A DNA stretch of 61,225 nt, filler included, from Sphacelaria rigidula (lineage: Eukaryota), in the NCBI GenBank assembly GCA_964200075.2. It is 4 parts of 4 records of this genome, joined end to end, with 100 filler letters (N's around TTAATTAATTAA, not from the genome) between each part and the next. Parts side by side here need not be neighbours in the genome. Positions count along the whole stretch, not along the records: positions 1 to 15,233 come from CAXNAA020001848.1; 3 more parts are not named here. The stretch is one strand, 5' to 3'. The notes under the pieces were generated by a model. It ran no database searches. It was not told the DNA's origin and was given only the letters and a program-made list of their open reading frames with translations. Shown piece by piece: positions 1 to 45,997 of this stretch (its first letter is position 1; each line of letters starts with the position of its first letter). The translations under genes were made by a program, and so were the position numbers.

Positions 1-719
1 GCGTGTGCGAGGGTAGGGGGGGTGGGGGTGGGGGAGGGTGGGGTGGGGGGGGGAGTGGTGGGGGTGGGGGGGGGGGGGGAAGGGGATGCCTTGAAGGACC
101 TAGAATGCAGGGAATATTGTAGTCCGCGTTTGCCGTGCTTGGTCAAGTACACAGCATAAAAAATGAAGAACATAATATGTACAGGTAGCGCCACCAGTTG
201 AGAACTTGAGTCCTCAAAGATTTTGAAAGTATGAGAAAGCTTAAGCACAAGTCGTGATACCTGAATAAGAACCCCACACTGAAGCCCTTGTAGTGGATGT
301 TGGTGATAGCCCCTCAGAGGATGTAAGAACTCGAGTCTCACGTCAAATAAGGGGCTCGTCAAGTGGTGGCGTTAGCTGTAGCCAAAAACATGGAACCTTC
401 TTATACGTGTAACAAATATGGTCGATTAGGGGAGTGTGCTGTGTACACATCGTTGATTACGGGACAGTGCTGCATGCATGTCGTCGATTACGGGACTGTG
501 CTGCATGCATGTGTACCGAGGAAGGCGGCGAATGAACCTTGGATGCATGCAGACGACGGGGTAGTGATCGATAGTAACACACGCTTATTTCTCTTCTTTT
601 CACGGGGAGGGAGGATGGGTAGGTAGTATGGCAGTAGGTACGCTCGTGTTCTTAGACGCACGCACCAAGCTTGTGGTCCATGAGTGTTTTGACGACGAAA
701 ATCTGGTTTCTCGTGTGTG

Positions 720-1640
720 TGTCTGTGTGTGCTAGTAGTCATGCAAGTACGGTGGAGTCGCATAAAACGTGCAGCTTCGGTTGCTGTAGTCGACTGTTGC
801 ACATGTAGCTTGTGTTACCTCGGGGGTGTTATTTGTCAATTTGTTGTGAGGGACCGTCGGGTTTCTTTCCCTGCCGGGCATACCTTTGTTTGTGTGTGTA
901 TTTGCAGGCGTGTGGCGCATGGACGGGGATTGGAAGGGGGGGGGGGGGGGGGGTTTTCCTGCTTTAATTTGTTTTTCTGGCTGTCTTGTCATGACCGAGT
1001 GACATTTGAGTTAGTTCATCAAGGGGTGGATGAGAAGCATCTCAGAAGGGCGCCGAAAAATCATCTGAAGAAATGTTTTGGATGATTTACGCCCTGAGAT
1101 TGGTAGGTCCCTACAAGCCTGAAGAAAAATCATCTGAGAAAAAGTTTTTTGGACGATTCACGCCCCTGAGATTGGTCGCTGCCTAAAAACCTACCATGCA
1201 TTATTCGGACCGAGGGGGTACATTATTATATTGTTTTACTATTATGTTAGTTTTGCTCCGTTGTAGGTCTGCAAGCCTCACGAAGAAAAATGTGTAGTTA
1301 TAGTTGCTGCACTCGACTGTTGCACACCTGGCATGTACTGTTTCCTGAGGGGGGGGGGGGTATTTGTCCACTCTGTTGTCAGGGGCCGTCGGGAGTTTCC
1401 TGCCGGGCACATATTTATGAGTTGTACTGTTCCGAGTGTGTGGCGCATGGAGGGGGGGGAGAGGAGGAGGGAAGGGGTGGCGGGGGTGATTCCCCTGGTT
1501 TCATTTATATTTCTGAACGGGTTGTAATGACCGGGTGACGACTGATTTCATCAGGGGGAGAGGGGGAGGGCATCTTCCAAGAGGCCCCGAAAAATCTATT
1601 TTTTTTCACAATTTACGCCCTGTGTTTGGTAGCTGCCTGC
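720..1640. repeat. Diverged tandem duplication of a ~450-520 bp unit (~720-1185 and ~1240-1640)
   Basis: Collinear shared blocks at an offset of ~520 nt: CGACTGTTGCACA, CCGTCGGG...CCTGCCGGGCA, GTGTGGCGCATGGA, and ACGCCC(C)TG..TTGGT.GCTGCCT near the unit ends. Confidence 0.7.
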
Positions 1641-2428
1641 TACTCTGCGCATTTTTTAATTTGGATGCATGATTTAATGTGTATCAGTGACAGGGTGTAA
1701 ATCGCCCAACGTATGCTTACATTATTCATGTGTAGATATAGATATTTCTTCGGGTGGTGTCGAGGCGAGCCCTCGAGTTCACGTGGAGATTCTACAATAG
1801 TGCAAGATTTTGTCATTGCTACGAGTATACGGTATATATAATGCACATGAGGGGGGTATTTGAGTATGTAAATAACGAAAATTGTTCTAGCAGGTCTTTT
1901 TTAAGTGGAACACGCAGCGTCCGAAGAGTCTTTGTTGGCGTCGTGACAGGCGTGGGACCCGCGATGTTCGCGGTATCATAATAATAAAATGTTATAATGG
2001 AGCAAACAATGGACCTTTGTACCAGCCTCCCTGGGAAGATGCACTATCTTGGTTATTATCATTTCCCCCCCCTTCGTGCTTTGTGTGGTTTACTCCGTCA
2101 CGGGTGTCCCGGTCTACCTCTTGTCCATTCTATTCACGTCTTTTTTATTGTATTGCGCCGCATCGCGAAGTCGTGCATTATTATACGAGATACCAGCATC
2201 CAACACACGAGACGCACGGGCTGAATGCTGGCGATGGTACATGAACGACAGTATGGTACACACCATGGCCAACAACACGTACGTGGTCAATAGTTCCAAT
2301 ATAAAAAAGTGTATCGCGAAAAGTGCAGCCTATTGCGTCTATTTCAGTTTGGGCCATACTTTACGCAACGCACCTTTTTTCCCATTGCGGCGGGTTGACT
2401 TCTTTTTTTTCTAAATTGCAACTACTAA

Positions 2429-2596
2429 GGCCAGCTCTTGTGGGAGCGTTTAGATTTTTTTTGCAATAATTTTGAACGACTTTTTTTTTTCTTTGCCGTA
2501 ATTGTGTATTTTGTGCCCGTTCACCATGATAAGAAAAAAAAACTCCTCTGAAATTGTTGCAAAATGAAATTTCAAACGCTCCCATAAGAGTTGGCC
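2429..2596. mobile_element. Tourist-like (PIF/Harbinger) MITE, 168 bp
   Basis: TIRs GGCCAGCTCTTGTGGGAGCGTTT and AAACGCTCCCATAAGAGTTGGCC (2 mismatches in 23). TAA on both flanks (2426-2428, 2597-2599). AT-rich non-coding interior. Confidence 0.8.
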
Positions 2597-5500
2597 TAAC
2601 CACATACTGTCCAGGCAGGTGTGCTGCAGTAATGCCACGGTCGTTCTTATTGCTTCGCTTGTGCTCTAGCGCGGGGGGTGCGCACTTTCGTCTCTCTCCG
2701 CTTGGTGTGTCGACGCTGGAAGAGAACCTCCCCCGCCCCCCCCCCCTCCCGATCGTTGTTATGTTGTTTTAGATCTTCTGCTGCCATCCTTTTGGTTGTT
2801 ATTCCAGGCGAGGCGATGCCTTTTTAGCACGACGAACGATTTCGCACGATTTCTTTCAAAATCACGCAGAACGAAGAAATGGCGAGTGACCTTCACGTGG
2901 CGCATGTTGGTCCCACGCCAGTATCGCCCCGATTTTGGACTCGTAACAATGATTTCGTGAGATTGAGAGTAGAGGATACGATTGAGAGTGAAAAGCAGTT
3001 AATTGGTGAATGATTCGTTTCAGTTCCGAAATGCCCCTCCGCGAGGCCCAATATACTTTTTGTAGTAGCTCGCCACTGAGGCCCTTGGTACCCCTGCGTA
3101 GGATATTGATGTGTAGCTGTAAGCACACGCCAGTGATGGAGGCAAAGAAAAGCACAAACGTTAAAGCAAATGATCAAAGGCACTCTCAATCTCACGAAAA
3201 CGTTGTTTCTTGTGACAGCTGCACAACATCCACGCATGCACATGGGTAGCACCAGTAGTCATATTCCAAAGACAACATGCCCGCCTGCCTTAGCCATCGT
3301 TACATGACGGAATACTCGGAACTCGCTCTTTACGAAAAATGCTGCTGGTTCGTGTATAGCCCCTTCATTGCAACCAGTATACAACAGTAGTACCAACATC
3401 CACGGGAATACAGCGACCCCCGTAACTAACCGTGACAGCCAACTAACTCTAGAAGTTCAGTAGTAGGATCAGCTTCCTCTTGAATTTAGATGCAAAAAAA
3501 CAAAACAAAACACGATGACCACAAAAGAAATCGATGGTCCTCTCGTGGACACATGAAAAAAAGAGATGACAAGGTCCTGCAGAGAAATTCTATCCTTAGC
3601 ACTATTAACTGACTGTCCGCTATGTGATCACATCAACTTGCCGCATCGGCGTCTCCCCCCCCCCTTCCCCCCGCTCCCCTGCTGCCGTCAGCACCGTACT
3701 CCCCACGCACTCGTGAACCCTGTGCGAATTGCATTAAAACGAAGAAAAATACGTTTTTCATCTGCCGTCACCCATCCGCACCGGTCATGCTCTTTAAACG
3801 CCCAACAGGCGTACATGTCGGTCGACTCTCACGTACGCGTGCACAGAGTAAAAAAATCAAACACCGGAGTGCGTACGAGTATACTCATCGAGGCATCGCA
3901 TCTACAGTAGACACGGTAGACGAACTCTACCTGCCGAGTTTTGCGCCACAAAAGAACAAAAACGTTCACCGCTACTAACCGCTAAACATGAAGATTCACG
4001 TACGAATGACCCGTTTCACCGTCCGTATCGAAACACATCCTCTTTCATTGACGATAAATTGTGAGCGAAGGTAGATAGATGCACACACAAACACACGGCT
4101 TCACCCAACGTCTCAAGACTCTCCTGTGCCACCAAGCCAAGCAGAGCCAGAGCGAAGAGGAGTACTAGCAGTAGCGCGCTCGATTTGTGCAGACAAACAC
4201 GATCAAGCCAAACGCCTCCACGAGAATGACGCCGTGGCAACTCGTGAACACAACTAACGTGAGTAAGACAGAAGCTTGTTTCGTTGTATCCCTCCTCCCT
4301 CTGCCACGGGCCAGGACAAACGGGCTCTAAGGCGAGTCATATACTTTCATCGCCGATCGACACCATTGCGGAATTCCGACCCACTACGTACAGCACGGCA
4401 ACCACCACTACTGCTGCATACATGAAGTATCACTTAGGCATTTGGTGCCCGCAGTTTTCCTTTTGGTCAGCATCCACGGTCGACATGAAATATGATGTTC
4501 CGAACAATGACGTCACCACCCTGGATGACGACGCCAGTCATGTAGAATTTTTCCGCCAATCAGAAATTCCCCTTTACAAAAAATCGACCAGCAGGACAAC
4601 TGCGGAAACCAAAATCCCGATCTCTGTACCACAAGACGAGGGACAGCACACCCACGCGCGACAGAACGCCGACACATCCGCAAAAACTCCGATTTATGCA
4701 CTCCACAATAGGAAAAATTAAACAAAAAATGGTGACAGTTGTCAAGCCAGATTTCGTGAAAAAAAACAGTGATATCACGGGTTCCGTCGGCATGTGTGTC
4801 TATGCATGTTGTAGAGCATCGCTATCAAGAGCTTGAGCGAAATACAAGAGAAAGGCAAATAGACACCGCAGATAAAAATGCGCAATCGTTAAACCAAGAT
4901 ACGGTAGTCAAAATCACTGGACAGACGGGTACAGATGCAATCATCTCGGTCTACCAGACGACAAGTGAACACATTCATACCAACCCTACCGGCAACTTAT
5001 TTTCCTGTTCTGGTGAGGATTTAAAGGTTCCCATCGCATGTACTATATATAGTATAGCTTCCATCATCATCCACACATGGGGATTTTCCCATTGATACGT
5101 GAGAAAATCGGCTGAGACACGGGTATTATTCCCTACGCAATCGCTCGCAATACACACACACAAATACAACCCCCCCCCCGGGGAAGGCAGAAGAAAAAAG
5201 TGAGACGAAAGTTGAGTGATTGAAACTCATCTTGGATCGATACCGGGGAACAAAATATTGGGAATAGATGAAAATACAACAGAGGGAGAGGGGGGGAAAG
5301 AGCGCGCGCGCGCAGGATCTGAATTGGGCAAAAAGCGAGCGGAGGTACTGAGTGACGATATATCACACGGACTTGTCTCAGGCATAAATCCCAGAGTGCA
5401 CGAATCATCACCATCCGGCTGTGCCATGCGCGAAACGTACCGCAAACAAAACACGTCGCCCTACTGATCGTTCAGACTAACACACGAGTGTAAAACAAAA

Positions 5501-5754
5501 CGTAGACAAGTAAGAATAGCGTGAAAGAGCCGCAGCAGGTACAACACGGTAGTGTAGCTCCAGCTGGGCGAGGGGCATCACATCAAAAGCACCATAGCAA
5601 TGACATACCACGCAATCTTGTAAAACGATTTGTGCACGTGAGCGATCTCCCCGATCGGTATTTGATTTTAAAACCCAAGATATTACCACCGCCCCAACAG
5701 CAAGACAAGACGATAAGGCAATGTTGTCCACACTGATGCATCCTTTTCCCTCCG

Positions 5755-5955
5755 CTCCCCCCCCCCCCCCCCCCCCCACACCCCAACAACAAAACACCAA
5801 CACCACCCACCCCCCCCGCCACAAAACCCCCAACCCCCCCCACCCCCCCCNNNNNNNNNNAGATATAACCCCCCCCCCCAAAGAAAGAAAGGCGGAAAAG
5901 GCAATTTTTCCCCCCCTCATCCGTCCTTTTCCCCCCCCCCCCCCCCCCCCCCCCG
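5755..5955. repeat. Poly-C low-complexity tract with a 10-N gap (5851-5860)
   Basis: Long C homopolymers around the N run. Confidence 0.8.
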
Positions 5956-6567
5956 CCAACAACACAAAACAAGACAAATCTGAAGGCATCTTCCTCCGTA
6001 CGATTCAATCCGCGATTCGAACACCTTCTCCAACCCAACCCACACACCATTCCCACCCCCATCACCTCGCGGAATAGATACCACGTCTCTCGACACAACG
6101 AAACACCAATCGGTTCTCCCTTTTCCCATGTTCCTGGATTCCGCCAGAGAAAACGCAGCGGAGACTCTCACCCGCTTCGGGGCACATGTAGGCACAAATA
6201 TGCGTCCTGCCCGCCATCCGCTCGTGTTCCTTGACTTCAAGCCTGATCGCGACCAACGCAAAACTACCCGCGGGGAAATACCCCCCGCCCCCCACACCTG
6301 CACCTCTACCCCTTCTCTCCACTTCTCGCTTCATGTATCCGTCGCCGGATCCCTCTACCTCGCCGAAGCTGTGGCGACAATCCCGGCAAAACCTCTTTGC
6401 GACAAACGCTGCTTAGCCCAAAACCAACAGACGCTGTCGCTGACGATCGCCTGGACATGAGGAAGAACAAGGCCAAGCACCGCGCACCAGCATCGCTATT
6501 TTCATCTCATACGACACGAAAACCACCCTGCTGCATTTCGAGTTTGTACTGTTGCCCGCAGAGTACC

Positions 6568-9500
6568 CTATGTGCCACCTGACGTAACCGTCGAGGTCGG
6601 CGCTGTCGCGGTTCCCTCCATCGCGTCAGATGCTCCAAGGGGTGACGATGCTGCCGCACTAGTACCTCCGCCTCCACCCCCGCCGTCGGCAGCCGTCTTC
6701 CGCAACGCACTGATGCCAGCGGCGGTCGCCCTCTGCACCATATCCGCTAGGGTTTCACTTCCCAAGGTCGGCGACGGTTGCAGAGTGTCCCCCTGCGCCT
6801 TCGCCGCCGCCAGCACGTCTTTGTCATCCACCTCGGCGCCGCCTCCAACAGCATTCAGCAAGGCCTCCGTCTTCAAGGCTTCTCGGGCCGTCGCGTGGAA
6901 CACATCCCGCACGCGATCGGGCGTCCATTTTTCCTGAACCGCCCACAGCGAAAGCGCCATTGAAGAGTCGAGCGCCTCGAGCCGCTCCCTGACAAGGTCG
7001 CCCACGGCTGCCGCACGACTCGACTTGGTTGATCTATCTTGCCCCCGTTTTCCGTCGCTGCCGCTGCCGCCGCCGATCAAGATTTCCGGTGCTCTCGTCG
7101 TTTGCGCTACTCCCGCCGCCATTTGTAAGGCCTCTGCTATCCCCACCTTGGCGCCTCCCACTTTCTCCACCGTAACCTCTGCGTCCCCGGATACTTTCGA
7201 GTTCGCAGCGGGAGTTACTTTTGCAGTCACCGCTATCATATCGGGGGCCTCCTCCGCGGCACGTTTATTCGACATAGCAACAGCGTGACCACGCCGCACA
7301 TATGGCCACAGCACGATGGTGGCTGCAGCCGCCAAGGCATGCACCTGGTCGGTCATTTTCTTGATACCCCAAGCGTGCGGGGGATACGGCGGGAGTGTTT
7401 CCGCCTTGACCTTGGCCTCCTCTAGCACTTGCGTCCCATTCTCAACCGCGGCATCGCTTTCCAAGGATTCCAGCAGCACCTCCGCAGTGTACTTATCTTT
7501 TCGCGCCGAGTGGACGGCGTCTTTGATAGTTTGTATTGACAACTCCTGCCGAACAGAGGTCAAGACGACAGCTAGCGACTTATCCAGCGCTTCAAGCACT
7601 CGTGTGACAAGCGTCGCCATAGCCTGCGCACTTTGATCCACTCCCGCCGCCGGTTGTTCCTCCGTGTCCATGCCGTCGACTCCTGCAACAGCCGAAGTGG
7701 CCGCGGCGGCGGCCGACGATGGCGGCGACGCAGCCTTCGCGGCCAGTTGCATTGGCTTCATGAGCTCTTCTTTGGCAACTCGCAGTTTCACGGTCGCCAC
7801 ATCGGAGTCCAGAGTCTCCGCATGATCTGACGCCGAAGCCTTTTTCGTCCATCTAGAATACACCGATTTCACCGCAACGGGTATTTCGGTGACTTTGGCA
7901 TCTTCCGGCGGCACGAACGGCCTGAGTGCGGCGTCAGCTGCAGCGGCCACACTTTCCACGTTCAGCACGAGCTTTCTTATACCCCAAGTGTGTGACGGAA
8001 GTGGTGGCAGTTCATCCGCCTTCCGCGCTGCCTTTTGGACGGTCTCCTCGTCGTCAACAGCGCCCCCCCCTCTCACGGAGTCCAGCAGCACCAGCGCGGC
8101 GCACGCTTTCTGCCTCGTGCCATGGAAGACTTTCTTGATGTTCAATGTTGACCATTCCTCCTGGATAGACTGTAGCGCGAGTGTGAGCGAGTCGTCAAGT
8201 CCTCGAAGCAAGCACGTGACAACGCCCGCCACAGCGTGCGGTCGCTCCGTCCCCGCGGACGGCTGATGCACCACACCCATTCCACCGACGCCCACGACAG
8301 TACCGGGGGCGGTCGACTGCGCCGTCGCGACCGCCAGCAGCAGAGAAGCCCGGATCTTATCTTGGGAGCTTAAGAGCTTAGTCATGGCTAACTCGGAGTT
8401 CAGTGTCTCCGAATTTCGATGGCCCGAGGCTTTCCTAACCCAAGTCGGCGTGTCAGCTGATATTTTATCCTTTGCACGATCCTTCGCCGACTCAGCAACC
8501 TCCAGCGGCAAGTACGGCGTCATTGCACGAACAGCAGCGGCAGCCGCATTCGTCACCAACGCCGGTAGCCTCTCATAGCCCGAGCTCTGCGACTCGGAGG
8601 CGTCGAGCGTCGCCCCTTCCACCTTGGTCGCCGCCAACGTTTTCATGTCATCAACCGCGGCGCCGCCCGCAACGGATTCCAGCAAGGTCTGCGTAGTGAT
8701 CGCTTCCTGCGCCATCCTGCATCGAACTTCCTGCATGCGTTTCGACGGCCACCGTGCCCGAAGAGCCTTCAGCATCAATCCCGTTGACGCATCCAGCGCC
8801 GTCATCGATTGCGTGACTAGAGCCGCCACAGCAAGCGCCCGTGTCGACGGCGCGGTGTTCGCCTCGCCTTCATTCTCCTGCATGCCGTCGGGCTGTGGAC
8901 CTTGGTCAACGGTAGTCGAGAACTTCGAAAGCGTCACTCCCGAGGCCATTTTGATCGATCGCAAAACCTCCACTCTCGAATGCGCGAGTCTCTCGACCAG
9001 GTCTAACGCCTCCGCGTCACCGCTAACTTCCTCTTCAGCCGCAACTATTCCTTCACCACTCGTAACCCCCTCGGTCGCGGCGCAACCACTCGAACTCACA
9101 GAGACTGCCTGTGCCCCTGCGCCATCCTCCCCCCTCGCCTTTAGCACGGCTCTCGCGTGAGGCGATACGTGCGACTGTAGCGCCAGCTCAGTTGCCGCCA
9201 CAGCGTCGTTCACTTCTCGGGCTACCTGTCTCATGCCCCGATTCCTCTTCGATTCGGACTCGGGTAGCGGGTGCGCCCACGTGCCCTGCCGCACAGCCTG
9301 GAGAGATGCCGGTGAGCATTTTGCGGCGCCGCCCTGCTCTCTCGCGAATTTCAAATAGGCCTGAATCGTATGCGCTTCGCGCCTCGTGTCTTGGCACATC
9401 TCAATAAATTGGTGCGGATGCACTCTCTGCGACGCCGACAGGGCCATCGCCACAGCGCTGTCGAGAGCTCTCAGCTTTTCCGTCACAAGCAGCGCCATAG

Positions 9501-10671
9501 CGGTCGCTTCTCTGTCGGAGCCACTCCCATCTGAGCTAGACCCTGATCCTGCGCAAGACAAGATTGCTCCGGCCAGCTTCAACACTGCAGCTATTCCCGC
9601 CCGCGCCGCTTTCAGCTTGGCCGTCTTAGACTTATCAGTCGCGAATCGGCTTCCATGGACCAGATCGTGATCGTCGCTCGCTTCTGTCGCACCGTCGCTC
9701 ACGAATTTGCCCCCGGCAGGCATCATCTCTGCCATCTCCGTCGCGGCCCCTGAGAAGGGCTGCGGTGGCATCGCCGAAGCAGCAGGATCAGCAGTACTTC
9801 CATTGCTGGGGCCGCCCCCGCTTCCGTCACCCGGGTTCTCGCGTGCATCATTCGGATGGCGCGCCTTACCCACGACATCATCGGCAGCGACGGCTGCTCC
9901 ACACGCGGCCGTAGCTCGGACGAGGTTCGCCGCCGTGTCCTCAGTCCTCTCGACTAGGCGTTCTTGGTTGGTAGGGGCGGGCGTAGGGGCAGTGATGGCA
10001 GGCGCTGAACCGATGGCGCCGGCTACCATCCCGGACGAGCCAAGCTTTTCCTGGAGACAGTGAGGGTTTTCGTGAGGGATTAAGTAGGGACCAAAAGACT
10101 TGTAGATTCGAATTACTCTGTACATGTTCTAGTCGCAGACGCGGAAACGTTCGTTACGCCAAGTGACGGGGTTGACATGAACACGAAGGGGGGTAGAAGA
10201 AAGGGTGATCGTTGATTCAGGAGGCAAGGAACGCTTGGTGTGCCGCGATGGTTAGGCGATAGTGAAGCAAAGAAATATTGAAATATTGTCAATGAAAACT
10301 ATCTCGTCCTAGGTCAGGACGGAAATACTGCAGGCCACGGTGTGAGCGCTCACAGGTCCAGAGTTCACGCGCCCGCTTCATAAACGAATATTAGGAGCGG
10401 GCACTACAAACCCACGGTGAAATTAGGCTCCGAACCGACGGCAAGCGCCATGAGCAAAATGCTAGGCTCGTGTCCTGCAGGATGTACGTACCTGATGCAC
10501 CTTGCCGGCCACTGCTGACGTCTCCGACGACTCTTCATCACAAACCTCCATGCCGATACCTCCGCCAGATTCCACGAAAGCCCTTGAGGTGACTTTGCCC
10601 GATGCGACTCGACTATCCATCTTCTCGTCCTCTGCTCGCACGGACCGGCTGAACTTGGCAGATACTTCGTC
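6568..10671 (-). CDS. Unknown Ala-rich protein (~1200 aa) with five ~200-aa helical repeats; exons 10671-10492 and 10050-~6568; 5' end possibly incomplete
   Basis: 1185-codon ORF. Acceptor CTGTCTCCAG|GAA at 10050 is phase 0 and joins the upstream exon DEVSAKF...MDSRVASG...AGKVHQ|GTACGT (in-frame ATG at 10620). Five repeats visible in the translation. The 3' end may instead splice at TCAG|GTGGCA (~6580). Confidence 0.85.
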
Positions 10672-11549
10672 CTACGTTTGTAATCAAGTACGGGAGACAT
10701 TCAAGGTGGTGTTGGCCGAGTACTCCTTCGACTTGAGGCAGAAATTAGCTCAGAGTTGATTGAGTCCGGTAAGTGTTTTTTTTCATTACGTTTTAATTTT
10801 TCGATGAATTCCGTCCCGTCTCACGAAAAAATGAAGATCGTTTCTGAGACTCCCGTTCCGTCCCGTACCTTCTTCGCTGGAAATGTATGCAAACATCCGA
10901 AATATATACGCTGAGATCATTATTCTGTGCAAGCGATGTCTTCACACATCAGCACACAAAAGCATCGCAGGTTTCACCTCTTCTTGTATACATCATCATA
11001 TATGGCGAGAACCGAATATACCCCCGAGATATCAATGGTAGTTGGGGGTATTGTAGGGTACAAAGCTGGGTTTCTTAGCGTGTCGATCCTGGGGGTAATC
11101 TGAAATTATGAGGTTTGGGGTTTTGTTCTCAGAGTTGCACCCCCGGTAGCGCGAAAATTATATTGAGACATGTTCGGCCCGCGGTCGAACTGGTTCCTCT
11201 CTCTCGAAAACTCAGGCCTCAGCAATCGTAGATTTAGTGATTGAAACCAGACATGAGTCGTCGGATCGTTGAATTTTTTGGTGTTTGTAACCCTGCTTGA
11301 TTGTTTGGTCGGGATACGCGGTACGATTTCTCCCGCATACGTTGAATTTATACATACTGTAGCAGCGTCGTTTTAACAATATCTAACAGAGTAATACGTT
11401 GATACACAATTCATTCGACACGTTTCTATACACCCAGCGAGGGCTACGGTGGATAGCGAAAAAAATCCATCCATTTTACATACATGTCTACGTAATTGTT
11501 GGGAAAAAAAAATAGCGTAAAAATCACAATGTTGAGAGTACTTCACAAC

Positions 11550-11794
11550 CAGGCTATACACGTTACACGTTACACGTTACACGTTACGTTCATCACATAA
11601 AAAAAATAACGTTACGTTAACGTTACATTTGAAAATTTAACGTCACGTTCACATTACGTTCATCACGTAAAAAAAATGAACGCTACGTTCACGTTACATT
11701 TGAAAATTAAACGTTACGTTTACGTTACGTTTCGGCCAAACGTAGCGTGAACGTAACGTGTAACGCTATGGCACGTGTAACGTGTATAGCCCTG
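11550..11794. mobile_element. MITE with CAGG(G)CTATACACGTTAC TIRs and an internal ACGTT(AC) micro-array (hAT-like ends)
   Basis: Left end CAGGCTATACACGTTACACGT; right end ACGTGTAACGTGTATAGCCCTG is its reverse complement. No clean 8-bp TSD. Confidence 0.65.
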
Positions 11795-11941
11795 AAAATA
11801 ACTAATCGAAGAGGACTCTCAGAGATCTGTTTTCCAACAAGACAAAATATGTGACAGCGGGGTCTGAGAAGCCGAAGCGCTACCTTTGCGCTACTCCGCG
11901 TGCTCGGTGTCCAAGCACTGTCTGTAGAGAGAAAATGTGCA

Positions 11942-12286
11942 AGGGTAGGTCGAGTAGAGTATACTCAATACTCAGTATTTGTGAAGAGTCATACTTTTAG
12001 TACTCAAAATTTGAGCAGAGTATTTGAGACCGTACTCAACGTACTCAAAATTTGAGTAGAATATTGAGGTCATACTCAAGTGATACTCTATTCTCAAGTA
12101 TTGCTGAGAGTGCTTACTCAAAATTTGAATTAAGTATTTGAGATCGTACTCGATCCACTCAAAATTTGAGTAGAGTATTTAAGGTCGTACTCGACCTACT
12201 CAAAAATTGAGTAGAGTATTTGAGGCCGTACTCGACCTATTCAAACGTCGAGTAGAGTAAATACTCGAGTAAGATACTCGAGTACC
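11942..12286. repeat. 41-bp tandem array with palindromic core TACTCAAA-A-TTTGAGTA (probable MITE interior)
   Basis: Units near 12001, 12042, 12115, 12156 and 12197. Left end TAGGTCGAGTA is inverted relative to TACTCGACCTA. Confidence 0.75.
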
Positions 12287-12527
12287 AAGGGCGCGTGAGA
12301 AATATATTCCTGGACCCACATTCATTTTTTCCATTTGGGGCCGATTGGTGGGGGGGGGGGGGGGTAACACTGTTGGGACCGTGTCCGGGCTGGCAGGTTC
12401 CGGCTCTATACTAAATCCTATATACTCAATGCAATCGAGTTCAACCACAGGTTACTTGGTTTTAGAATGGGTTGAACGGGGCGGGAGAAGAGTCACTTTA
12501 CATGAAGAGCACACCCAAGCACAAGAA

Positions 12528-12712
12528 CGGCGGGTATACCCGAAAAGAGTTACCCGACTGCCGGTACCGGTTTTCTGAAAGCCTCCCATACCGTACCCGA
12601 CAAGTTCTGTAAAGTCTGTAACACTTTCATACCGGTACCCGACAGTTCTGTAAGCTCTGTAAGCTTCCTGTACCCTTACCCGGGGGTAGGGTATACCCTT
12701 GCAGATATACCC
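12528..12712. repeat. Partial copy of the CGGGTATACCCG / CCGGTACCGG / TTCTGTAAG repeat family
   Basis: Near-identical to 13045-13135 and 13162-13290. Confidence 0.7.
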
Positions 12713-12888
12713 CGTTGCAGGTACGAGCACAGGTATTCACCCTCTGGAAGTATGGCTCTAGGTTCAATCAAAACATTACTCAATGGCCCGAACATGTACC
12801 CCCCAGCTCCCACCACCCCACCCTGCCCTCTCATTCATTTCAGCATCCAACCAAAAAATCCAAGGTTTGAAAGTAAATACGAAATATG

Positions 12889-13324
12889 CAAGGTTGTGTT
12901 CTGTAAGGTACGGTTTTCCGTATACCCGGGGTATTTTTCCCGGTATGTACCGTACCCGACAGCTCTGTGATTTCTGTAAGACTTTCGTACCCTTACCCGA
13001 TAGCTCTGTAAGTTCGGTACAATACATTTACCCGAACCCGAGGGGCGGGTATACCCAAAAAGAGTTACCCGATTGCCGGTACCGGTTTTCTGTAAGCCTT
13101 CAATACCGTACTCGACAAGTTCTGTAAGTTCTGTACATAACATTCACCCGAACGCGGGGGGCGGGTATACCCGAAAAGAGTTGCTTAATTGCCGGTACCG
13201 GTTCTCTGTAAGCCTCCCGTAACGTTCCCGACAAGTTCTGTAAAGTCTGTAAGACTTTCATACCGGTACCCGACAGTTGTGTAAACTCTGTACGGAATCT
13301 CGTACGTTACAGAACACAACCTTG
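12889..13324. mobile_element. Non-autonomous DNA transposon (436 bp) with perfect 18-bp TIRs and internal tandem sub-repeats
   Basis: CAAGGTTGTGTTCTGTAA (12889-12906) and TTACAGAACACAACCTTG (13307-13324). Flanks GAAATATG and GAATACTG resemble a decayed 8-bp TSD. Confidence 0.75.
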
Positions 13325-15233
13325 GAATACTGAGTATTCTGGCTGTGGACACCCTAGTACTCCAAGTAGCCTGAACGTTCACGGTACCCCAGGGCACGTC
13401 CATATTATACCCAAACACCGCTTTCTTGGAACAGAAAATCTGGGACTACGTCGAGAAGGGACGGGACGGGAAGTGGAACTCGGTAAAATGCCGGAACGGG
13501 ACGGTCCTCTTCCCTGTAATATTTTCATCCCGTGAAAATGCCCGCAATAATAACGCCGAGCGATAAATCCCAGGTACTTTTCAGTGTCTTCTGCTGGGAC
13601 CAGCCCGTATAGCGACTACGTTCCTGTTGTAGGCGTACGGCCCCTCGGCTTATACGTGACACGGTAACCCCAACTGATAGTATACACATGATATACAAGA
13701 CAAACATGAGGAGAAGGTGAGAGAAAACGCCGCTATAAAATCGCCTGGACAATTCTTGCAGGTCACCTGGTGATGCCGTCACTGAACGGTGATAGTTTGT
13801 GGTTCTCTAATGTGGGTATTCCCGCCATGTGGATCGACAGTCACGGTCCGCCCACGATACGCAACACACTCGCACAGCCAGTGTTGTTCCTTTTCGATAA
13901 TATGGAGGCGGTGTTTTGGAAGATTGGACGTCTGGACGCGGCGCGCCTCGTGTATGATAATGGCGAAACTTCGAGTCCATGTTGTATGACGCCACAGGTG
14001 GGTATCGGAACGACAGGTTCGGTGTCGCTAGGCGCGCATGGCGCTGTGTGGGTGGAAACGGTGGTTATCAGAATGACTACGAGCTGGGCCAGTCGAGAAG
14101 CGAATTTGTAGTTTGCAGGCCCATTCACCGGCCAATACTTAGAGTTGTGCCCTGAAATTGGGTATGGACAATGAAAAGGGCATAATGAAAACAAATATCA
14201 GTGCACACAAGTTTTCATCTATTTCATGAGTGGAGGGCATTTCCTGAAACTTGAAACTGATTATTGCCCGTAACTCATTATTTGAAAAAAAAACTTGTGT
14301 GCACTGGTAGTTGTTTTTAGTATGCCCTATTTATTCATTGTCCGTACCAAATTTCAGGGTCTAATCTCTAAAAATTGGCTGGTGAATGGGACGCTTAGTG
14401 ACGGGGTCAGAAGAAATTCGGAACAGTATTTTGCAGGCCACTTACCGGCCCACGTTCGGTGTTTGTGTATTGAAACTTTGTGTGGGCCGTGGCTAGGGCA
14501 TAATTGACGAAACAAAGTGGGTCACGTTGACTTTTTGTATTTTTTAACAGGTTTGGGGCGTTTGAGCATGGAAACGATCATTTTTTCACGAGAACGCCCG
14601 AACCTCTCCCAGAAAAAGAAATAAATTGAGGACCCATTTTTTTTTTCATTCAGCATACCTCTGTGCTTCTTTATTCTGAGTTTCAAATCACAATTCTAAA
14701 AATTGAACTGAAAAATTGAGATAAGACCCAAGAGCAGTCTTCATTTCGTGGCTAGGGCATAAGTGACAATCTTCATAATTTTCAAAAGCCCGAGAAAAAA
14801 TGGAAACGAACGAAAAAATTGAAAAAGCTGTGTTTTTTAGCTTCATTATGCACTAGCGGTTCTTCACACGAAATTTCATGGCATAACTCTCAAAAACTGA
14901 TACGCGATATCCAGATTTAGTTCATCTGATGCCTCTGCTCGTAATATACTGATCTTAGTATGAAAACTTATGTGCGCCATATCTCGAGATAGATCACTAA
15001 TTGGGTGAAGGTGAGGGTATCTATTGTCTCCCAGTGCTCAAGGGAATGTCCACACCAAAATTCGCTGCCATCCGCTGAATGCATCGATCGGGGGGTTTAT
15101 AGATATTTTAGTATGGACGCTATCTGCGTCAGGTATAGGAATTACTAGACATGGGGTTTAATCAAGGGCAATATACAAAAAAGGGTAGACCCTTATGTTT
15201 TTGGAGCAAAAAAGGGTGGCGCATGTCTCCTTT

Positions 15234-15333
15234 NNNNNNNNNNNNNNNNNNNNNNNNNNNNNNNNNNNNNNNNNNNNTTAATTAATTAANNNNNNNNNNN
15301 NNNNNNNNNNNNNNNNNNNNNNNNNNNNNNNNN
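15234..15333. other. Artificial contig-joining spacer N44-TTAATTAATTAA-N44
   Basis: 12-mer with stops in all six frames inside N runs; the identical design occurs three times. Confidence 0.97.
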
Positions 15334-17878
15334 TCCCAACTGCTCGTTGTGCTCGGCCTTTCCCATTTCGATTTACGTGAAGATTTTGCCTCCCAAAACC
15401 ATGCACTTTCGGGGGGGGGGCTATCGTAGAAAGTGTCAGTTGTAGTGTTTGTTGTATTTCGATACAATTGGGCCGTTACTGGTGTATTTGTACCTGTGAT
15501 GGAAAAGCAGGCGTTTCAGCTGACACCGTAGAGGGAGTGTGACGTTTTCACGTTGCGCATGCGAACATTTTTACATCCGTGTGTTTGCATGATTGATACG
15601 AGCGCTGATGCTGAGCCACACGGAAGGAACGTTGGACGGCATGATGGTGGCATGTTGTTAAAACAGTTCGCACTCGCATAGATCTGCATTTTGCCATGAC
15701 TACAGCTCGAAAGCGGCCGAGATACAAAGTTGCATCTTGTGGCAGAAATCGGTTCATGTCCAGAGGTCAAGTGGTTCAAAATATTTGTGAGCGTGCACTG
15801 CTACGCCCCTGTTTGTCTTTCCCGGCGATCGCGACACGCGTGTTTTCTCCCGACTCCCTCGACGCGTTTGAACGTCGTGGCATGCGTTTCTATGTACTGT
15901 ACAGTCCCTCACAATACTATCCTCTAAAGGTAGCGGGTGATGACACGAGTAAACCTTTTCGAGTGAGTCTTTCCCCCCCCCGCTGCCCTACCGGTCTCCG
16001 AGCGTGTTCTAGCACTGATGAGCATGGCGGGCGTTGTTTGTTCCCCCCTTACCCCACAACCGTATCCCACGTAGATTTGACCGTGATTTGTTATTGACGC
16101 ATTCTCAGCGTCGACGTAGAGCCGATTAGTTGGACATATCTGAAAGTGCGTGTGGCCGAAGAAGAGCACAAGTGAGATGGATAACTCTGTAGCACAATGT
16201 GGTGGAACTTTGACATCGAAAATACGAAGTTGTAGCCTTGCTCGAAACACGTCATCAGCGGAACAAGATCCCGTCGACCCTATCACCAGCCTGTTGATCA
16301 TCTCATTTTGCGCTCTCACCGTGCTTTCATTATGTTGCTTGAGTCACGCAGGCCTCGGCACGAGCGGCACGAGTCAACGTGGACAGCCGCGGGCATGCGC
16401 AGGTGAGTACTTCATAGCATCGTAGTAGTCTTGTGTCGGGATTTGGCGGGTGATGCGGAGTACGGCGGCGCCATGTGCACACAGCACAGAGTAATGATGT
16501 GTATATAATGGCGGCGTGTTTTGGTTGTGCAGGTACTGCCCGTGTCACTTGGCGTGTATGTTAACGCCATTATGTCTTGGGATCTATAAGACACCGACAC
16601 GCCTTCACGGGTTCTTTTCTTGCGTTCCACCTTGCAGTATCCAGAAACGTTGTCGCTCCTTTCAAGTTTCGTACCAAAAGCTCATTGGTCCCAGTGCGGT
16701 ATAGATAAGTGCCTTATTTACCAAGACCTTTTCGTTTCGAGTGTGGTGTCAAAACCTACTTGGTTCTAGAATAGTGTACATCAGGCTGATCGGAGCGAAA
16801 TATACCAACCGATGCCTCCGGACCTGAAGCGTAAAAAAGAAGAGCACATTCGCCATTGGAAGGCCGTCGTTACCGTTGTGCACAAGGCATTTCTATTTTC
16901 GTAGATGAGTGCAAATTCCTCGTGTGGCAAAGATTCAGTCAAACAGGCCCAACGGAGGAAAAAACCAAAGACCAAATCAAGGGAGACCTTCGAACGGTAG
17001 ATGCACGCACTCTCTCTGTCGGAGTTTGAGGTTCCAAATGTCAAACCTTGAGTAACCAATCCAAGACAAGTGCATGTACCAAGGGCTTTGAGATCCCTTC
17101 CATATGGGAAGATGTTCCCCTCGATGTTCGCTTCGGCTGTAATTCTCCGACGGCGACGAGGTGGGTATCGAAAGAGGCATCACTGTCATCGCGTTCGGTT
17201 GGCCTCAGCGACGTGTACTCGTGATTTGAGGACAATGAAGCCAGACGTGGTATGTGTTGCGTATGGCTCGGAACACACATCCCTAGCTGCCGCTGTCGGG
17301 CTGTGTGTGGTATGCTGGCATAGTGTTCGATGATGGGAGTGTTCGGATGACCGACCAGAGCGCGCGGTGCACTCCGCGGTACCCGTACGGTTGCAGGAAA
17401 GCTTTTTTGTGTCGCCTTTGCCCGTGGTTGTGTGGGTGTTTACCCCGCAGTCTGTTTTCGGTCTACCTCGCCGGCACCAACCTGCATCAATGGAAGGGTG
17501 TTTTTCGTCGCAAGTCAGCACCCTTATTCAGCCTAGTCCCACAAGTCCGTCGACTTCAATTTGTTTGGTATTGAGATGTTGTTGAGCTTCATGTGCTTTC
17601 GAAACCAGTTGCCTTCAAAATGGAACCAATAGCTGCTGAGTTCTAGTGTGATCTGTTCGAAAAAACTCGCGGGTGTCCAAAAGTCTTGTAGGGGACAGGG
17701 CGGGATCTGGCTGAGGTACCGTGTTGTAGGCACCACTTGGCGAGGCTCGCCGTACTCTCTTTAAATGCCTTGCATGTCTGGAGACAGATTTGAATGTATC
17801 TTTCAAGCGTCCATTGACCCATCAGAAGGCCCATCGCTTTCACACCCGCGCTCACACCGGAAACAAAATTCACAGGCC

Positions 17879-20316
17879 ATGCCAAGCACAAAGAGGCGTG
17901 CTGCGGCGGAGGCGGGCGACGCGAGGGCGGGAGATAGGTCTGGTATGGATGAAGTGTGTGGACTCTTTCCGCGGCTGACCCTTGGCCCCGCGGAGGCGGC
18001 GGCGGCTGCGGACAAGGCGGGCATCTACCGGCAGGGACAGCGCCGGGCCAAGGCGCCTACGATGGCATGTGCGGCTGCCGAGGGTGGCAAAAAACGACGC
18101 ACGTCCCAGACATTCAGTGCTAGCGGAGGTGGTGAAGACGGCGGGGGAAGCAGGAAGCGACTCTCGCTCTCTCCGGCGGTAGCCGCGACGGCGAGTTCGC
18201 TCGCTGACGACAAAAGCAAGAAGCGGCTCCCGTCAGCACGAGCCTTCCATGTTGGACAGGGCGGAGGATATGTTGGGGGTGGAGGTGGAGGTGGAAGTCA
18301 AAGGCTGCCCCGGCGACGGCGTGCTCCAACAAGGGGCCATGAGGTTCGTTATTCGGTAGTGGCTGAGGTATTTCATCCGCTTTTTGGTGGTGAATTTTCA
18401 GCCAGTCAGTTGTGAATAATTTCACGGTTACTCTTATTGGCGTTGTCGGGAACAAGAGGGCGCGTATCTCTCAGTCTCGGCAATTCCTCCGTCACCCCGA
18501 TTTGCTTTGGGCAAAAAGGGAAAATCTAGGACATCGGTCAAAGAGCTCGAGAGTCCTCTTCAGGCAAGTGCAGAAGCTGCGGGAGAGACGTGACGCATTT
18601 CGATGATGGGAGTTCAGTTGACTGGGCTATTTTTCTCGTGTCTCGTTTCTGGGAGGTATGACTTAGTCTCCAAGCAACTCCGCAGCTCCGTCGGTGTGCT
18701 TTAATTTTAGTTATCATACAACCCCGGCTTCGTTGACTGGCGGCAAAGTCTTGTCAACGCATCAAGATAGTGTACATCCTTACTCGGAGTCTAGTAGCGG
18801 ACTCTCAGCGCTTGAGAAGGGTGCTTGGGTAAGGAAGCCCGACAAGGTGTAAAATAGCATTTTGATCAGTTGGTTTAGAGTACCCCTCGTCTCCCTCTCT
18901 CCTACGCCCTCTCTTTGGCTGGAGAAAAAATTGAGAGTGTGGTACCTTTTGCGCTCGGATACCCTGGTTGGAATCCATGATTCTGTCGTGAATGCCAGTA
19001 ATTTGTGCTGAAGCTCGAAACATTGGTGGGTCAATAGAAGACTGTTTTTACCGAAATGTTTGAAATGCGAATGGAAGTATAACGGCAGGACGGTGTGCTC
19101 GTGTAGTGTCATGTGTCATATTGCTGGAACTGTGGAATTTGGTTTTACTGTGTGTCTTGGTCGTTAGATATTTCCTATAAGCGGCGTGTGTAGGGTATGT
19201 AGATAGCGCGTGGTATGTCGCAACTATATGGTAGTGTTGGCTCGTTCAGCGTCCTTCGTGCGTACAGGGTTCCGTGGTGATGGCGATGCAGTCATGATTC
19301 GCGGTGTACAAACGTTGTTTCTCCCATATTCGCGTATATCGTGACATTCTGGGCTCAGGTTGGTCGGCAACCGATGACCGGACAACCAACCGGAGGAGGA
19401 GGGGGACGGAGAGGAGGGCTGGGATGGGGAGGAAGGGCTGGCGGCGTACAGCCATCGCTGCTCCAGGTGCCTGCTGCACTGCCGACTCCAGCGCCGGCAC
19501 AGGTGCAGCCACCGCCAGTGTACGTTGGAGGGGGCGTCGGAGTCGGGCCGGGCGTGGGTTTCTCCTCTTCCGGCCAGGGAGGAGGGGGCGAGGCGACTGC
19601 TGCACCGCCGACTCCAGCGCCGGCACAGGCGCAGCCACCGCCAGTGCACGTTGGAGGGGGCGTCGAAGTCGGGCCCGGTGTGGGCTCCTCCTCCTCCGGT
19701 CAGGGCGGAGGGGGCGGAGCGGTGCGGGGACGCGACGGCGCGAGTGGTGGAAAGGAGGAGGAGGAGGAGCAGGGACAACGCAAGAGGGTCAGGAAGGTGA
19801 GTCGTGTAATGTTATGTCTCTTTGTTTGTTGTTGACACGACGCTTTTGGTGGCTGGAATCAAGTAGATGTTGTGGAATGGCAGATGCTGCCATGAGCAGC
19901 AAGCAGGGTTCGTGCCGTCCAGGGAGTTTGTACATGTAATGGTGGTGTGGCAGTAGGCGCTGATGGCCGTTGTGCATGTGATGCGGAGACGTGAGGCGGG
20001 CCCCGCCTCAGTGTCAGCGTAGGGTTTTGGATTGAGTGTGAACGCAAGATATTTCTTCCCAATCCAGCAAGATATTTGCCATAGCTTCATTAGCCTGCGA
20101 CATAGCTGCAGACCGACAAATGGATGAGACTTTCGTGTTGTCGTGACTGCGGTCGTCAGCTTGCGGTATGATGTCAAGGGATAAGTAGGCAATAGTATTA
20201 TTGCCGTCGTGCTTGTGCAGCAGCACGCCAACTCATACTTGAATCTTCAGTGCTGGTGTGTATCTCAGTATATCCCCACTTCCTCTTGACCGTCATTCGT
20301 CGAGCAGGGCCGTTGA
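17879..20316 (+). CDS. Unknown low-complexity, basic, Gly/Pro-rich protein (~300 aa); exons 17879-18343, 19359-19796, probably 20308-20316
   Basis: Starts MPSTKRRAAAE. Donor GAG|GTTCGT, acceptor CTCAG|GTT, donor AAG|GTGAGT, all phase 0. Last acceptor GAGCAG|GGC CGT TGA is tentative. Exon 2 has an in-frame 126-nt duplication. Confidence 0.6.
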
Positions 20317-24840: not shown

Positions 24841-25665
24841 AACACTAGGTTCTTGTCACGCTTTCGGAACATAACTACTCTCAAACACTGGATGATATAC
24901 CGTACTCGTATACCCTGTTGTTATCGTTACCTTTACATTGAAAAGCCTTCCCGCGATATCTGCTAGTATATTCTAACATTCGTACTGGTTCGTCCGAGGT
25001 TCATCTAATGCGGATGCTTCCCCTGGTCACGGACTAACTGACAACCGAAAATAGGGTACAGACGGTACAAGAGCATCAACAAATAAAAATTTAAAAAAAA
25101 AGAAGACAGGGACACAAGAGTCCAGGCCTCAGCACAAAATCAACACAGGGGCAACGTGATACTTTATTATACATTGAATTAATTAAGCAGATGACCACCC
25201 CAGAAAATCGCATACCACCGGCGACCGTTCAGATCAAAGGAGATAGTGCCCATCGCTCCAACTCGACGCGCGAGGCCAAGCAAAACAAGAACAAGAAGAA
25301 CAGCCAGTGATCACCAACCAAGACTATATGATCGCATGATTCTACAACATCCTTGTACTGTTGTAGTCGTACCTCTACGGGGCCCGAGTAACCCGCCTTT
25401 TTTTCACAGTCATTATTCAAACTCTCTCCGTTGATGCTATGGTCATGTAGATTTTTGTTTCCGTTGATCGAGCAGGAATCATCGTGATCGACCAGCAGCG
25501 TAGGCCTACAGGTGTGCAAAAGTAGCCAGCACCAAGATATAGCTGTACCCTGCATTTCACTCGCTTTGACGAGGTTTCATAGTATTCACGAGGTCTGTAC
25601 AGAAGCCTTGGTACTCGAGACAAATGCAAACATCTCTGTGACAGAGCTTTCGCTGTCACGTCCAG

Positions 25666-28600: not shown

Positions 28601-29778
28601 GCTTGCAAGCGGCTGGAGGCCGAGCGCGAGGCGGCCGCGAGGCAGCTGAGCGACGGTACGAAGCGCGCTATGGAGTTACAGTTGTCCCGTGAGGCGTTGG
28701 AGACCGAAAGGGATGTCTTGTCGGCGCGGTGCGCCGAGTTGAAAGCCCAACAGGACGCATGTACGAAGGGAGAGTGTGCGCGGGTAATCGCCGCGGAGGG
28801 GCGTGCAGCGGCGGCGCTTGAGGCACGCTCTGTTGAGGTGAACGAGGCACGAAAGGGGAGCGCTCAGTTGGTGAGTGTGTGTCTGTGAGCGTGTTCATCT
28901 GTGTTTGTGTGGGTGTTGAGCGGATGCATGGTCAAGCTTGCCTAATGTGAGAGTGGCTGGTCACCGTGTTCATCTGTGGTGCGCGCACATCCCCGCCGCA
29001 CTCAGTGAACCTCCCCGCCTTCTGTTAGGATCGTCGTTTCCTACCGTCAGTCACCCTAAGTGTGTCTGAATCACAAAGTGAGCACGTTTCAAAAAAATTT
29101 CAACACCTAGACTTTAAACTCTCACCACCCCCGACCGGCTACCGTGCTCAACCCCTATCCCCGGCCGGCTCACCAACAGATATCCGCGAAGGAGGCAGAA
29201 TTGGCGGCTGCCGTAGCCAAGATCGCCGATCTCGAGCAGCTTCGCGCGGCGGCGGCGAAACCGACGGGACAGGCCCTTGCCGACAAGGAAGAGGAGGCGG
29301 AGGAATTGAGGACTACCGTTAGCCGGGCTGCGGGGGGAAATCGGGTAAGAAGTGCCCTTCGTACTTCATGTTTGTGTATCGGTGAAATAAACTGTATCAT
29401 GTTTGCTGCAGCGTGGAAGCTTACGGTGAAGGAAAACGTCACTTGTCCGTTGAAATTTTCACGCGGGGGGGTAGTTCCAGATAGTACTCCATGTATAGTG
29501 GATGGGTTCTTGATGTCTGGAGGGGTTTTCCTCCCCGGTCCGTCGTAGCTATCGAATGCTCCGGAGTATACATATATATGTGTGTGTGTCTCCATGTTAG
29601 CTCGACAAATTACGTGGATTCTGAAAATTGTCAGGTTTTGGAAGAGCAACTCGCGGTCGCCAAGGCAGAGCGTGAGCGCGCGTCGATCGCCGTTGCGGAG
29701 TTGCAGCAGCGCGTCTCAGTCCAGGAAGCAGAATTGACCAAGCTCGCCGCCGCGCTCCGCACAGCGGAGTCTGTTGAG
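25666..29778 (+). CDS. Coiled-coil protein with one predicted TM segment, 3'-incomplete; exons 25666-26823, 27685-28870, 29180-29317 (or -29344), 29635-29778; possible upstream exons 21368-21460 and 23826-23878
   Basis: The 339- and 406-aa ORFs join in phase 2 (CG|GTGAGT ... ATGCAG|G). Later exons are phase 0 with GT-AG ends. Heptad-rich E/K/L/A segments and hydrophobic ALLVLAAVPIFYLVA. The upstream exons are phase-compatible but weakly supported. Confidence 0.8.
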
Positions 29779-30565: not shown

Positions 30566-30665
30566 NNNNNNNNNNNNNNNNNNNNNNNNNNNNNNNNNNN
30601 NNNNNNNNNTTAATTAATTAANNNNNNNNNNNNNNNNNNNNNNNNNNNNNNNNNNNNNNNNNNNN
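30566..30665. other. Artificial contig-joining spacer
   Basis: N44-TTAATTAATTAA-N44. Confidence 0.97.
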
Positions 30666-45897: not shown

Positions 45898-45997
45898 NNN
45901 NNNNNNNNNNNNNNNNNNNNNNNNNNNNNNNNNNNNNNNNNTTAATTAATTAANNNNNNNNNNNNNNNNNNNNNNNNNNNNNNNNNNNNNNNNNNNN
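45898..45997. other. Artificial contig-joining spacer
   Basis: N44-TTAATTAATTAA-N44. Confidence 0.97.

Follow-up and report, generated by a model that had tools for sequence, protein, structure and literature searches.

Talin and vinculin are built as a chain of alanine-rich four- or five-helix bundles, and the spectrin repeat is a unit of three helices and about 106 amino acids (aa), joined to the next by a continuous helix. Multicellularity arose in brown algae separately from animals and plants, and a considerable proportion of brown-algal proteins belongs to no described family. Here we describe a gene on the minus strand of a 61,225-nucleotide (nt) stretch of DNA, referred to as the window, from the genome assembly GCA_964200075.2 of Sphacelaria rigidula (Phaeophyceae, order Sphacelariales), whose product resembles these systems in its tandem helical bundles and departs from them in unit length, linkers and end domains. 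It is very probably a real, transcribed and spliced nuclear brown-alga gene encoding at least 1203 aa, with a disordered N-terminus of about 180 aa, five domains of 165–200 aa and a short disordered tail. The domain family is, as far as sequence comparison goes, described in no library, and the array appears to have arisen by old duplications, its units keeping positional orthology with those of a 40%-identical six-unit protein (P0003).

The domains lie in a single open frame (6568–10128, 1186 codons; P0001), which exceeds every other stop-to-stop frame in the window and is 2.2 times as long as the next (532 codons); the window holds 12 frames of at least 200 aa. The original prediction, made from the sequence alone, had divided this frame into five tandem units of about 200 aa starting near 9620, 8995, 8380, 7790 and 7163, and we cut the frame at these positions and compared the five pieces with one another by BLASTP. 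All ten pairs gave significant matches, with expectation values (E) from 0.002 to 2.8e-28 and 29.6–40.3% identity over 61–163 columns; units 1 and 2 form the weakest pair (E = 0.002) and units 3 and 4 the strongest (E = 2.8e-28, 40% identity). The five units are thus borne out by sequence comparison, and the profile envelopes (Table 1) begin 13–16 nt from the predicted starts. The proposed order of motifs is also visible in the unit alignments, and runs from a KL..A...I...L.LA helix through a Gly/Ser/Ala linker to A.AVA.LVT..L.ALD.S, W, LL.SV, GGAAVDD, LPP.P, WG and AAA..AL.PYV. Unit 1 is the most divergent, lacking the tryptophan after helix 2 and carrying GGAAK in place of GGAAVDD, and unit 5 has no C-terminal linker.

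Signals of this kind might be expected from a non-functional, fast-evolving Ala-rich frame in which the repeats reflect composition or recent duplication only. The frame has a GC content of 0.60–0.62 compared with 0.46–0.50 in its flanks, alanine makes up 17.9% of the residues, relatives are very few, and all four exon-2 differences from a variant described below change an amino acid. As a control for composition we scored each unit on a profile of the other four, together with 300 shuffles per unit. Units 1 to 5 scored 51.7, 91.1, 137.4, 108.4 and 112.5 bits respectively, and the best shuffles scored 7.2–8.4 bits. Furthermore, the units are 30–40% identical to one another and yet 1186 codons are intact, the units pair with counterparts in P0003, transcript-like contigs contain the gene in spliced form, and the cores of the bundles are confidently predicted. 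We therefore consider a composition-only frame to be extremely improbable.

At the DNA level the array keeps only short relics, one of 51 nt in three copies (71% identity, spacing 612 and 597) and one of 44 nt in two copies (73% identity, spacing 615), and because nothing longer is kept the duplications that gave rise to the units are old, in line with the old folded domain that had been proposed from the strong divergence of the units. Self-comparison of the whole protein by BLASTP gave the diagonal only, with no off-diagonal unit matches, and Tandem Repeats Finder reported no long-period array, its longest period of 500 being below the unit spacing of about 600 nt. A profile scan of 956 six-frame open reading frames of at least 40 aa across the window found the domain in this gene only.

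Nine public sequencing runs from three studies contain the stretch, and four of these (X1, X4, X6 and X7) were compared. Contigs of the DNA-type runs X1 and X4 are collinear with the window from 6000 to 11581, whereas one contig each of X6 (4233 nt) and X7 (4199 nt), the two runs presumed to be RNA, covers the region from 6124 and 6118 respectively to 10049, skips 441 nt, and resumes at 10491–10673; the skip is absent from X1 and X4. The junction between 10492 and 10050 is exactly the one predicted, and the unbroken cover of the X6 and X7 contigs up to 10049 confirms the proposal that all of the repeats lie in one large exon. We conclude that the gene is expressed and spliced. Translation of the spliced sequence from the first ATG of exon 1 (10620–10618), with residues 1–43 encoded by exon 1, gives 1203 aa. 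This is the length of the NCBI entry CAM9273023.1 (P0008), annotated as 'unnamed protein product [Sphacelaria rigidula]', to which the exon-2 part (residues 44–1203) is identical.

Table 1. Coordinates of the gene, its repeat units and its linker motifs, as positions in the window.
Feature	Position	Strand	P0001 residues	Remarks
Exon 1 as seen	10492–10673	minus		Apparent splice acceptor at the 5' limit; seen in contigs of X6 and X7
Intron, 441 nt	10051–10491	minus		GT..AG; CAG/GTACGT ... CTCCAG/GAAAAG; contigs of X6 and X7
Exon 2, about 3.93 kb	6118–10050	minus		Coding sequence 10050–6571, stop codon 6570–6568, 3' untranslated region about 450 nt; unbroken contig cover
N-terminal region, exon-2 part	9634–10050	minus		Ala/Gly/Pro/Ser-rich; predicted disordered (model residues 1–138, model confidence <50, no secondary structure)
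Unit 1	9633–9013	minus	166–372	Profile envelope, independent E-value (i-E) 8e-68
Unit 2	9009–8404	minus	374–575	Profile envelope, i-E 2.5e-80
Linker motif WVRKASGHRNSETLNSE	8392–8442	minus		Between units 2 and 3; regular-expression match
Unit 3	8394–7813	minus	579–772	Profile envelope, i-E 1.1e-84
Linker motif WTKKASASDHAETLDSD	7801–7851	minus		Between units 3 and 4; regular-expression match; low-confidence short helix in both models
Unit 4	7803–7180	minus	776–983	Profile envelope, i-E 1.7e-83
Unit 5	7179–6673	minus	984–1152	Profile envelope, i-E 6.2e-66
C-terminal tail	6571–6672	minus		Gly/Ser/Thr/Ala-rich; predicted disordered (model residues 1124–1160, model confidence <50)

Beyond 10673 the X6 and X7 contigs carry 123 and 84 additional letters respectively that have no fit to the window, and a search of the window for this 5' leader, using either a 30-letter stretch of it (at most 2 mismatches) or the two 15-letter halves of that stretch (at most 1 mismatch each), gave no matches. 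Because this transcript leader of 84–123 nt has no counterpart in the window, an additional 5' exon lies either off the contig piece that carries the gene or in unassembled sequence. Spacers of the form N44-TTAATTAATTAA-N44 at 15234–15333, 30566–30665 and 45898–45997 separate four pieces of the window, each about 15.23 kb long, and the gene is within the first (1–15233). These pieces look like separate contigs strung together, so that linkage of the gene to sequences beyond 15233 is not implied, and this arrangement may explain the missing 5' exon.

The frame is open over all 27 codons visible upstream of the ATG, 17 of them in exon 1 and 10 in the printed part of the leader. Together with the 84–123 nt of contig that are absent from the window, this would accommodate a secreted, wall-associated or organelle-targeted structural protein, with the true N-terminus and a targeting peptide in the unseen 5' exon. 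However, the 10 printed leader codons are polar and not hydrophobic, cysteine is only 0.7% of the residues, and the leader may be a plain 5' untranslated region, and we think it decidedly unlikely that the protein is of this type.

We modelled unit 3 alone (198 residues, 8-row alignment) and the whole exon-2 product (1160 aa, 5-row alignment) using AlphaFold2. The unit 3 model has a mean predicted local distance difference test score (pLDDT) of 76.7 and a predicted template modelling score (pTM) of 0.68, with pLDDT of at least 90 in 89 of the 198 residues. Helices are placed at residues 2–28, 48–79, 84–109, 117–128 and 140–161 with block pLDDT of 80–94, and a loop (33–47) and the tail (169–198) are of low confidence. 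In the whole-protein model (mean pLDDT 60.3, pTM 0.29) there are five modules of five helices each with block pLDDT of about 70–90, separated by low-confidence linkers of 20–40 residues, and pLDDT falls below 50 at both ends (Table 1). Each unit is thus predicted to form an Ala-rich up-down bundle of five helices, four long and one short, and each modelled bundle has one internal disordered loop. The variable Gly/Ser/Ala loop follows the first helix, and the conserved GGAAVDD and LPPxP..WG motifs fall in the loop before the last helix.

The conservation of the units is consistent with these models. In 38 alignment columns a single residue is present in at least 70% of 14 units, and 29 of these columns have Ala, Leu, Val or Ile as that residue. 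In the remaining nine columns the residues are Thr, Arg, Ser, Gly and Pro, within the motifs TR..A, LD.S, SV..G.AV and LP.P...G. This is the pattern of a putative bundle core with fixed turns, and together with the confidently predicted helices of unit 3 and the five modules of the larger model it upholds the view that the repeats are folded helical modules and not low-complexity sequence. No clear membrane segment is present in the protein, in which a single 19-residue window, within helix 0 of unit 1, reaches a Kyte-Doolittle value of 1.6 (maximum 1.64). Because of the low-confidence linkers, the internal loops and the pTM of 0.29, the model does not describe a rigid end-to-end rod, and we read the predicted structure as independent bundles on a flexible string rather than a fixed rod.

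Comparison with described families and folds gave few leads. No Pfam family matched the 1186-aa frame (hmmscan against Pfam-A, E ≤ 10), a threshold that applies to all of the Pfam comparisons below, and the best match of an 8-row unit profile to sequences in the PDB was to a designed helical repeat (E = 0.23; not significant). These results and the small number of sequences that carry the domain agree with the initial impression that the family is not a recognised one. A Foldseek search against PDB and BFVD returned no matches at E ≤ 0.001, the best having E values of 0.15 (an I-BAR protein) and 0.10 respectively. With VIA-align, five neighbouring antiparallel helices of the unit superpose on five of the seven helices of seven-helix bundles.

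In architecture at most, the protein resembles the talin rod (R1–R13), vinculin and alpha-catenin, in which several amphipathic, Ala-rich bundles of four or five helices likewise follow one another along a single long polypeptide that lacks enzymatic domains. The five Ala-rich bundles in series in our models conform to this general talin-type architecture, and would suit a force-bearing rod that connects the cytoskeleton with the membrane or wall of a filamentous brown alga, its bundles unfolding under tension to uncover cryptic binding helices. However, the window protein matches none of the talin, vinculin and catenin families in Pfam, and no such chain is among the best 50 matches listed by Foldseek against PDB, by a wide VIA search, or by VIA on the top 1000 of Foldseek. 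Its units are longer (about 200 aa) and have a disordered loop after the first helix, and they are joined by flexible linkers of 20–40 residues rather than packed end to end; such long linkers, together with the internal loops, do not imply that force is transmitted as in a rod. Moreover, no FERM, I/LWEQ, vinculin-tail or other membrane- or actin-binding end domain was detected in the window protein by Pfam, and both of its ends are predicted to be disordered, the N-terminus being perhaps incomplete. The specific likeness to the talin rod and vinculin that the original prediction had suggested is therefore not sustained by the Pfam and fold comparisons or by the model, and we regard a force-bearing rod of the talin type as unlikely. 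We attach a similarly low probability to an independently invented linker, in a brown-algal lineage, between the cytoskeleton and the cortex or wall, that is, an analogue of talin and vinculin that would unfold or recruit partners under load, with the linker sites described below acting as phospho-switches.

Spectrin-repeat rods provide another parallel. They too contain tandem, anciently duplicated helical-bundle units that are strongly diverged and that keep positional orthology between species, but the window unit is made of five helices and about 200 aa, its linkers are disordered, and it has no Pfam match.

The only lead from language-model comparison is to the CATCHR domains of vesicle-tethering complexes, which resemble the window protein in being stacked helical bundles. 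Look-alikes of unit 3 in the ESM Atlas fall in clusters with COG4_m, COG7, RINT1_TIP1 (RINT1/TIP20), Sec6 and COG2_C at cosines of 0.87–0.90, raising the question of whether the protein is a divergent tethering rod related to subunits of COG, the exocyst and Dsl1. This is a weak lead from one search: the recognition value is low at 1148 compared with a benchmark of 2300, and the shared features number 115–133, whereas members of one family typically share 170. The five-unit stretch (residues 139–1124), for which the Atlas gave no usable match, did not reproduce the lead, nor did Pfam, and no CATCHR tethering subunit is among the best 50 VIA matches listed. Moreover, CATCHR subunits are not known to be built from five similar units in tandem, and it seems very unlikely to us that the protein belongs to this class.

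The weak Foldseek matches point in another direction, in that they include glycolipid-transfer and BAR-type helical proteins (E 0.15–0.9). These, the Ala/Leu/Val-rich amphipathic helices and the five-helix up-down topology would all be in keeping with an exchangeable binder of lipid or membrane surfaces similar to apolipophorin III or perilipin, in which amphipathic bundles open and spread over lipid droplets or membrane surfaces. The Foldseek matches are nevertheless not significant, and there is no Pfam match to apolipophorin III, exchangeable apolipoproteins or perilipin. The Gly/Pro turn motifs and the conserved Thr-Arg pair would also favour a fixed fold over a loosely packed bundle that opens, and we give the lipid-binding explanation little credence.

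Relatives of the protein are few. A five-unit profile searched with HMMER against 1,835,955,588 representative proteins found four at E ≤ 0.001 including the cluster of the query itself, the others being P0003 (1480 aa, six units; E = 2.8e-210), P0004 (852 aa; E = 4.2e-27) and P0005 (896 aa; E = 4.2e-19). P0005 is in the same 90%-identity cluster as P0006 (912 aa), an S. rigidula protein, and its type is therefore a paralogue in S. rigidula. Word-index searches with the protein or with a full-length alignment found only its own cluster, and a search with the unit alignment found P0002, P0005 and P0009 (926 aa), a close relative of P0006; 8000 candidates were scored in each of these searches, and Ala-rich words probably crowd out relatives. 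Pfam comparison of the five other family members gave only five unrelated noise families, with one member each and a best E of 0.085.

The family is thus seen in five protein clusters and in two subfamilies, a five- or six-unit type and a paralogue type of 850–930 aa with more degenerate units. By profile there are six units in P0003 (i-E 3e-25 to 3e-47), three in P0004 (7e-27 to 9e-4) and three in P0006 at i-E below 1e-3. All five window units (i-E 6e-66 to 1e-84) follow the motif order of the family, KL..A...I...L.LA / loop / A.AVA.LVT..L.ALD.S / W / TR..A....LL.SV / G.AVDD / LPP.P..WG / V..V.AAA..AL.PYV. In the paralogues P0006, P0009 and P0004, three to five degenerate units are preceded by an N-terminal region that is distinct (RVAAL.KLR..LREADA..., then RWFGL.WTVAETM).

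P0003 and the window protein align over their full length with 40% identity, the additional unit of P0003 falling after window unit 2 and before window unit 3. In a tree of 14 units, in which five of the 11 inner branches are unresolved, window unit 1 groups with P0003 unit 1 (support 99/96), window unit 2 with P0003 unit 2 (87/89), and window unit 5 with P0003 unit 6, the last (93/92). P0003 units 4 and 5 group with each other (93/97), indicating a P0003-specific duplication. Because units pair by position and P0003 units 4 and 5 pair together, most of the duplications predate the split from the organism of P0003, and the middle of the array kept expanding. The variant P0002, from a contig of run X4, has four exon-2 differences from the window (6609, 7899, 9070 and 9845), and these, although tiny in number, all fall in low-pLDDT regions and none of them in a bundle (residues 1174, 744, 353 and 95). 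Two further differences of the X4 contig are in exon 1, at 10630 and 10635.

A sequence motif is shared by some of the linkers. The pattern W-x-[KR]-K-A-S-x-[SH]-x-x-[AS]-E-T-L-[DN]-S is matched in two of the four inter-unit linkers (Table 1), and in P0003 it recurs after units 2, 3 and 4. Its basic pair two residues before the serine (W-x-K/R-K-A-S) is, we presume, a site of the type preferred by basophilic kinases.

In view of these observations we tentatively interpret the protein as a lineage-restricted, soluble, non-enzymatic scaffold with a beads-on-a-string organisation. The bundles would be protein-binding modules, the flexible linkers would hold them apart and give them reach, and phosphorylation of the W-x-K/R-K-A-S linkers could tune either the spacing or the binding of partners. 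That neither a catalytic nor any other Pfam domain was matched is consistent with a non-enzymatic role. When the gene and the scaffold are taken together as one explanation, we consider it evenly balanced between being right and wrong.

Several points weigh against this interpretation. The RNA nature of X6 and X7, like that of X8 and X9, is a guess in the record, and X6 and X7 both come from one study. The N-terminus is unsettled, the frame being open through all of the printed leader, and it may include a targeting peptide. The models are built on shallow alignments (8 and 5 rows), and AlphaFold2 readily draws helices for Ala-rich sequences. The linker motif is in only two of the four linkers, and it is a putative kinase site. 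Finally, it is from sequence and models that we infer the scaffold function, as well as the partners, location and phosphorylation of the protein.

The sequence itself has already been deposited, unnamed, and tandem helical-bundle repeat proteins are well known as a kind; it is the domain family that appears to be undescribed. No literature on CAM9273023 was found by accession or by topic, and the protein is not mentioned in the passages that were found of the brown-alga genome preprint 10.1101/2024.02.19.579948, the supplementary tables of which might list its orthogroup. The locus offers a clean and well-bounded case: the domain spans about 200 aa and has a confidently predicted fold, it is present in five or six copies per protein, a paralogous subfamily exists, and there is evidence of expression. 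The domain is a candidate for a new domain family entry, and single units suit expression for structural or binding work. A role as a cortical or cytoskeletal linker, if established, would inform our view of how cells are constructed and sensed in brown algae, and a mechanical linker in particular would imply lineage-specific mechanical signalling in an independently multicellular group. If it is an ordinary lineage-restricted scaffold, the value lies in annotation, a defined architecture being provided for an 'unnamed protein product'. The protein is not surprising in principle, and it would touch on an open question only if it proved to have a cytoskeletal or mechanical role.

The surroundings of the gene within its piece contain no long frames, the longest in the flanks being 152 codons (1–5400) and 154 codons (12700–15233). 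A long G/C homopolymer-rich stretch at 5600–6000 adjoins the 3' end of the gene on its downstream side; it is interrupted by a 10-N gap (5851–5860), on either side of which several frames read as poly-Gly or poly-Pro runs. About 0.9 kb upstream of exon 1, at 11557–12700, there are tandem repeats of 7, 31, 41 and 71 nt, for which the summed word depth in the DNA runs X1 and X4 is 1e4 to 4e5 compared with 60 and 29 over the gene, and which have many alternative joints; this is a very high-copy repeat. In the other pieces of the window, the long frames at 46790–48385 (minus strand), 25583–26824 (plus strand) and 17765–18412 (plus strand) have no Pfam match, and a 417-codon frame at 27635–28885 (plus strand) has a weak coiled-coil-type match to TPR_MLP1_2 (E = 0.0012), below the curated cut-off.

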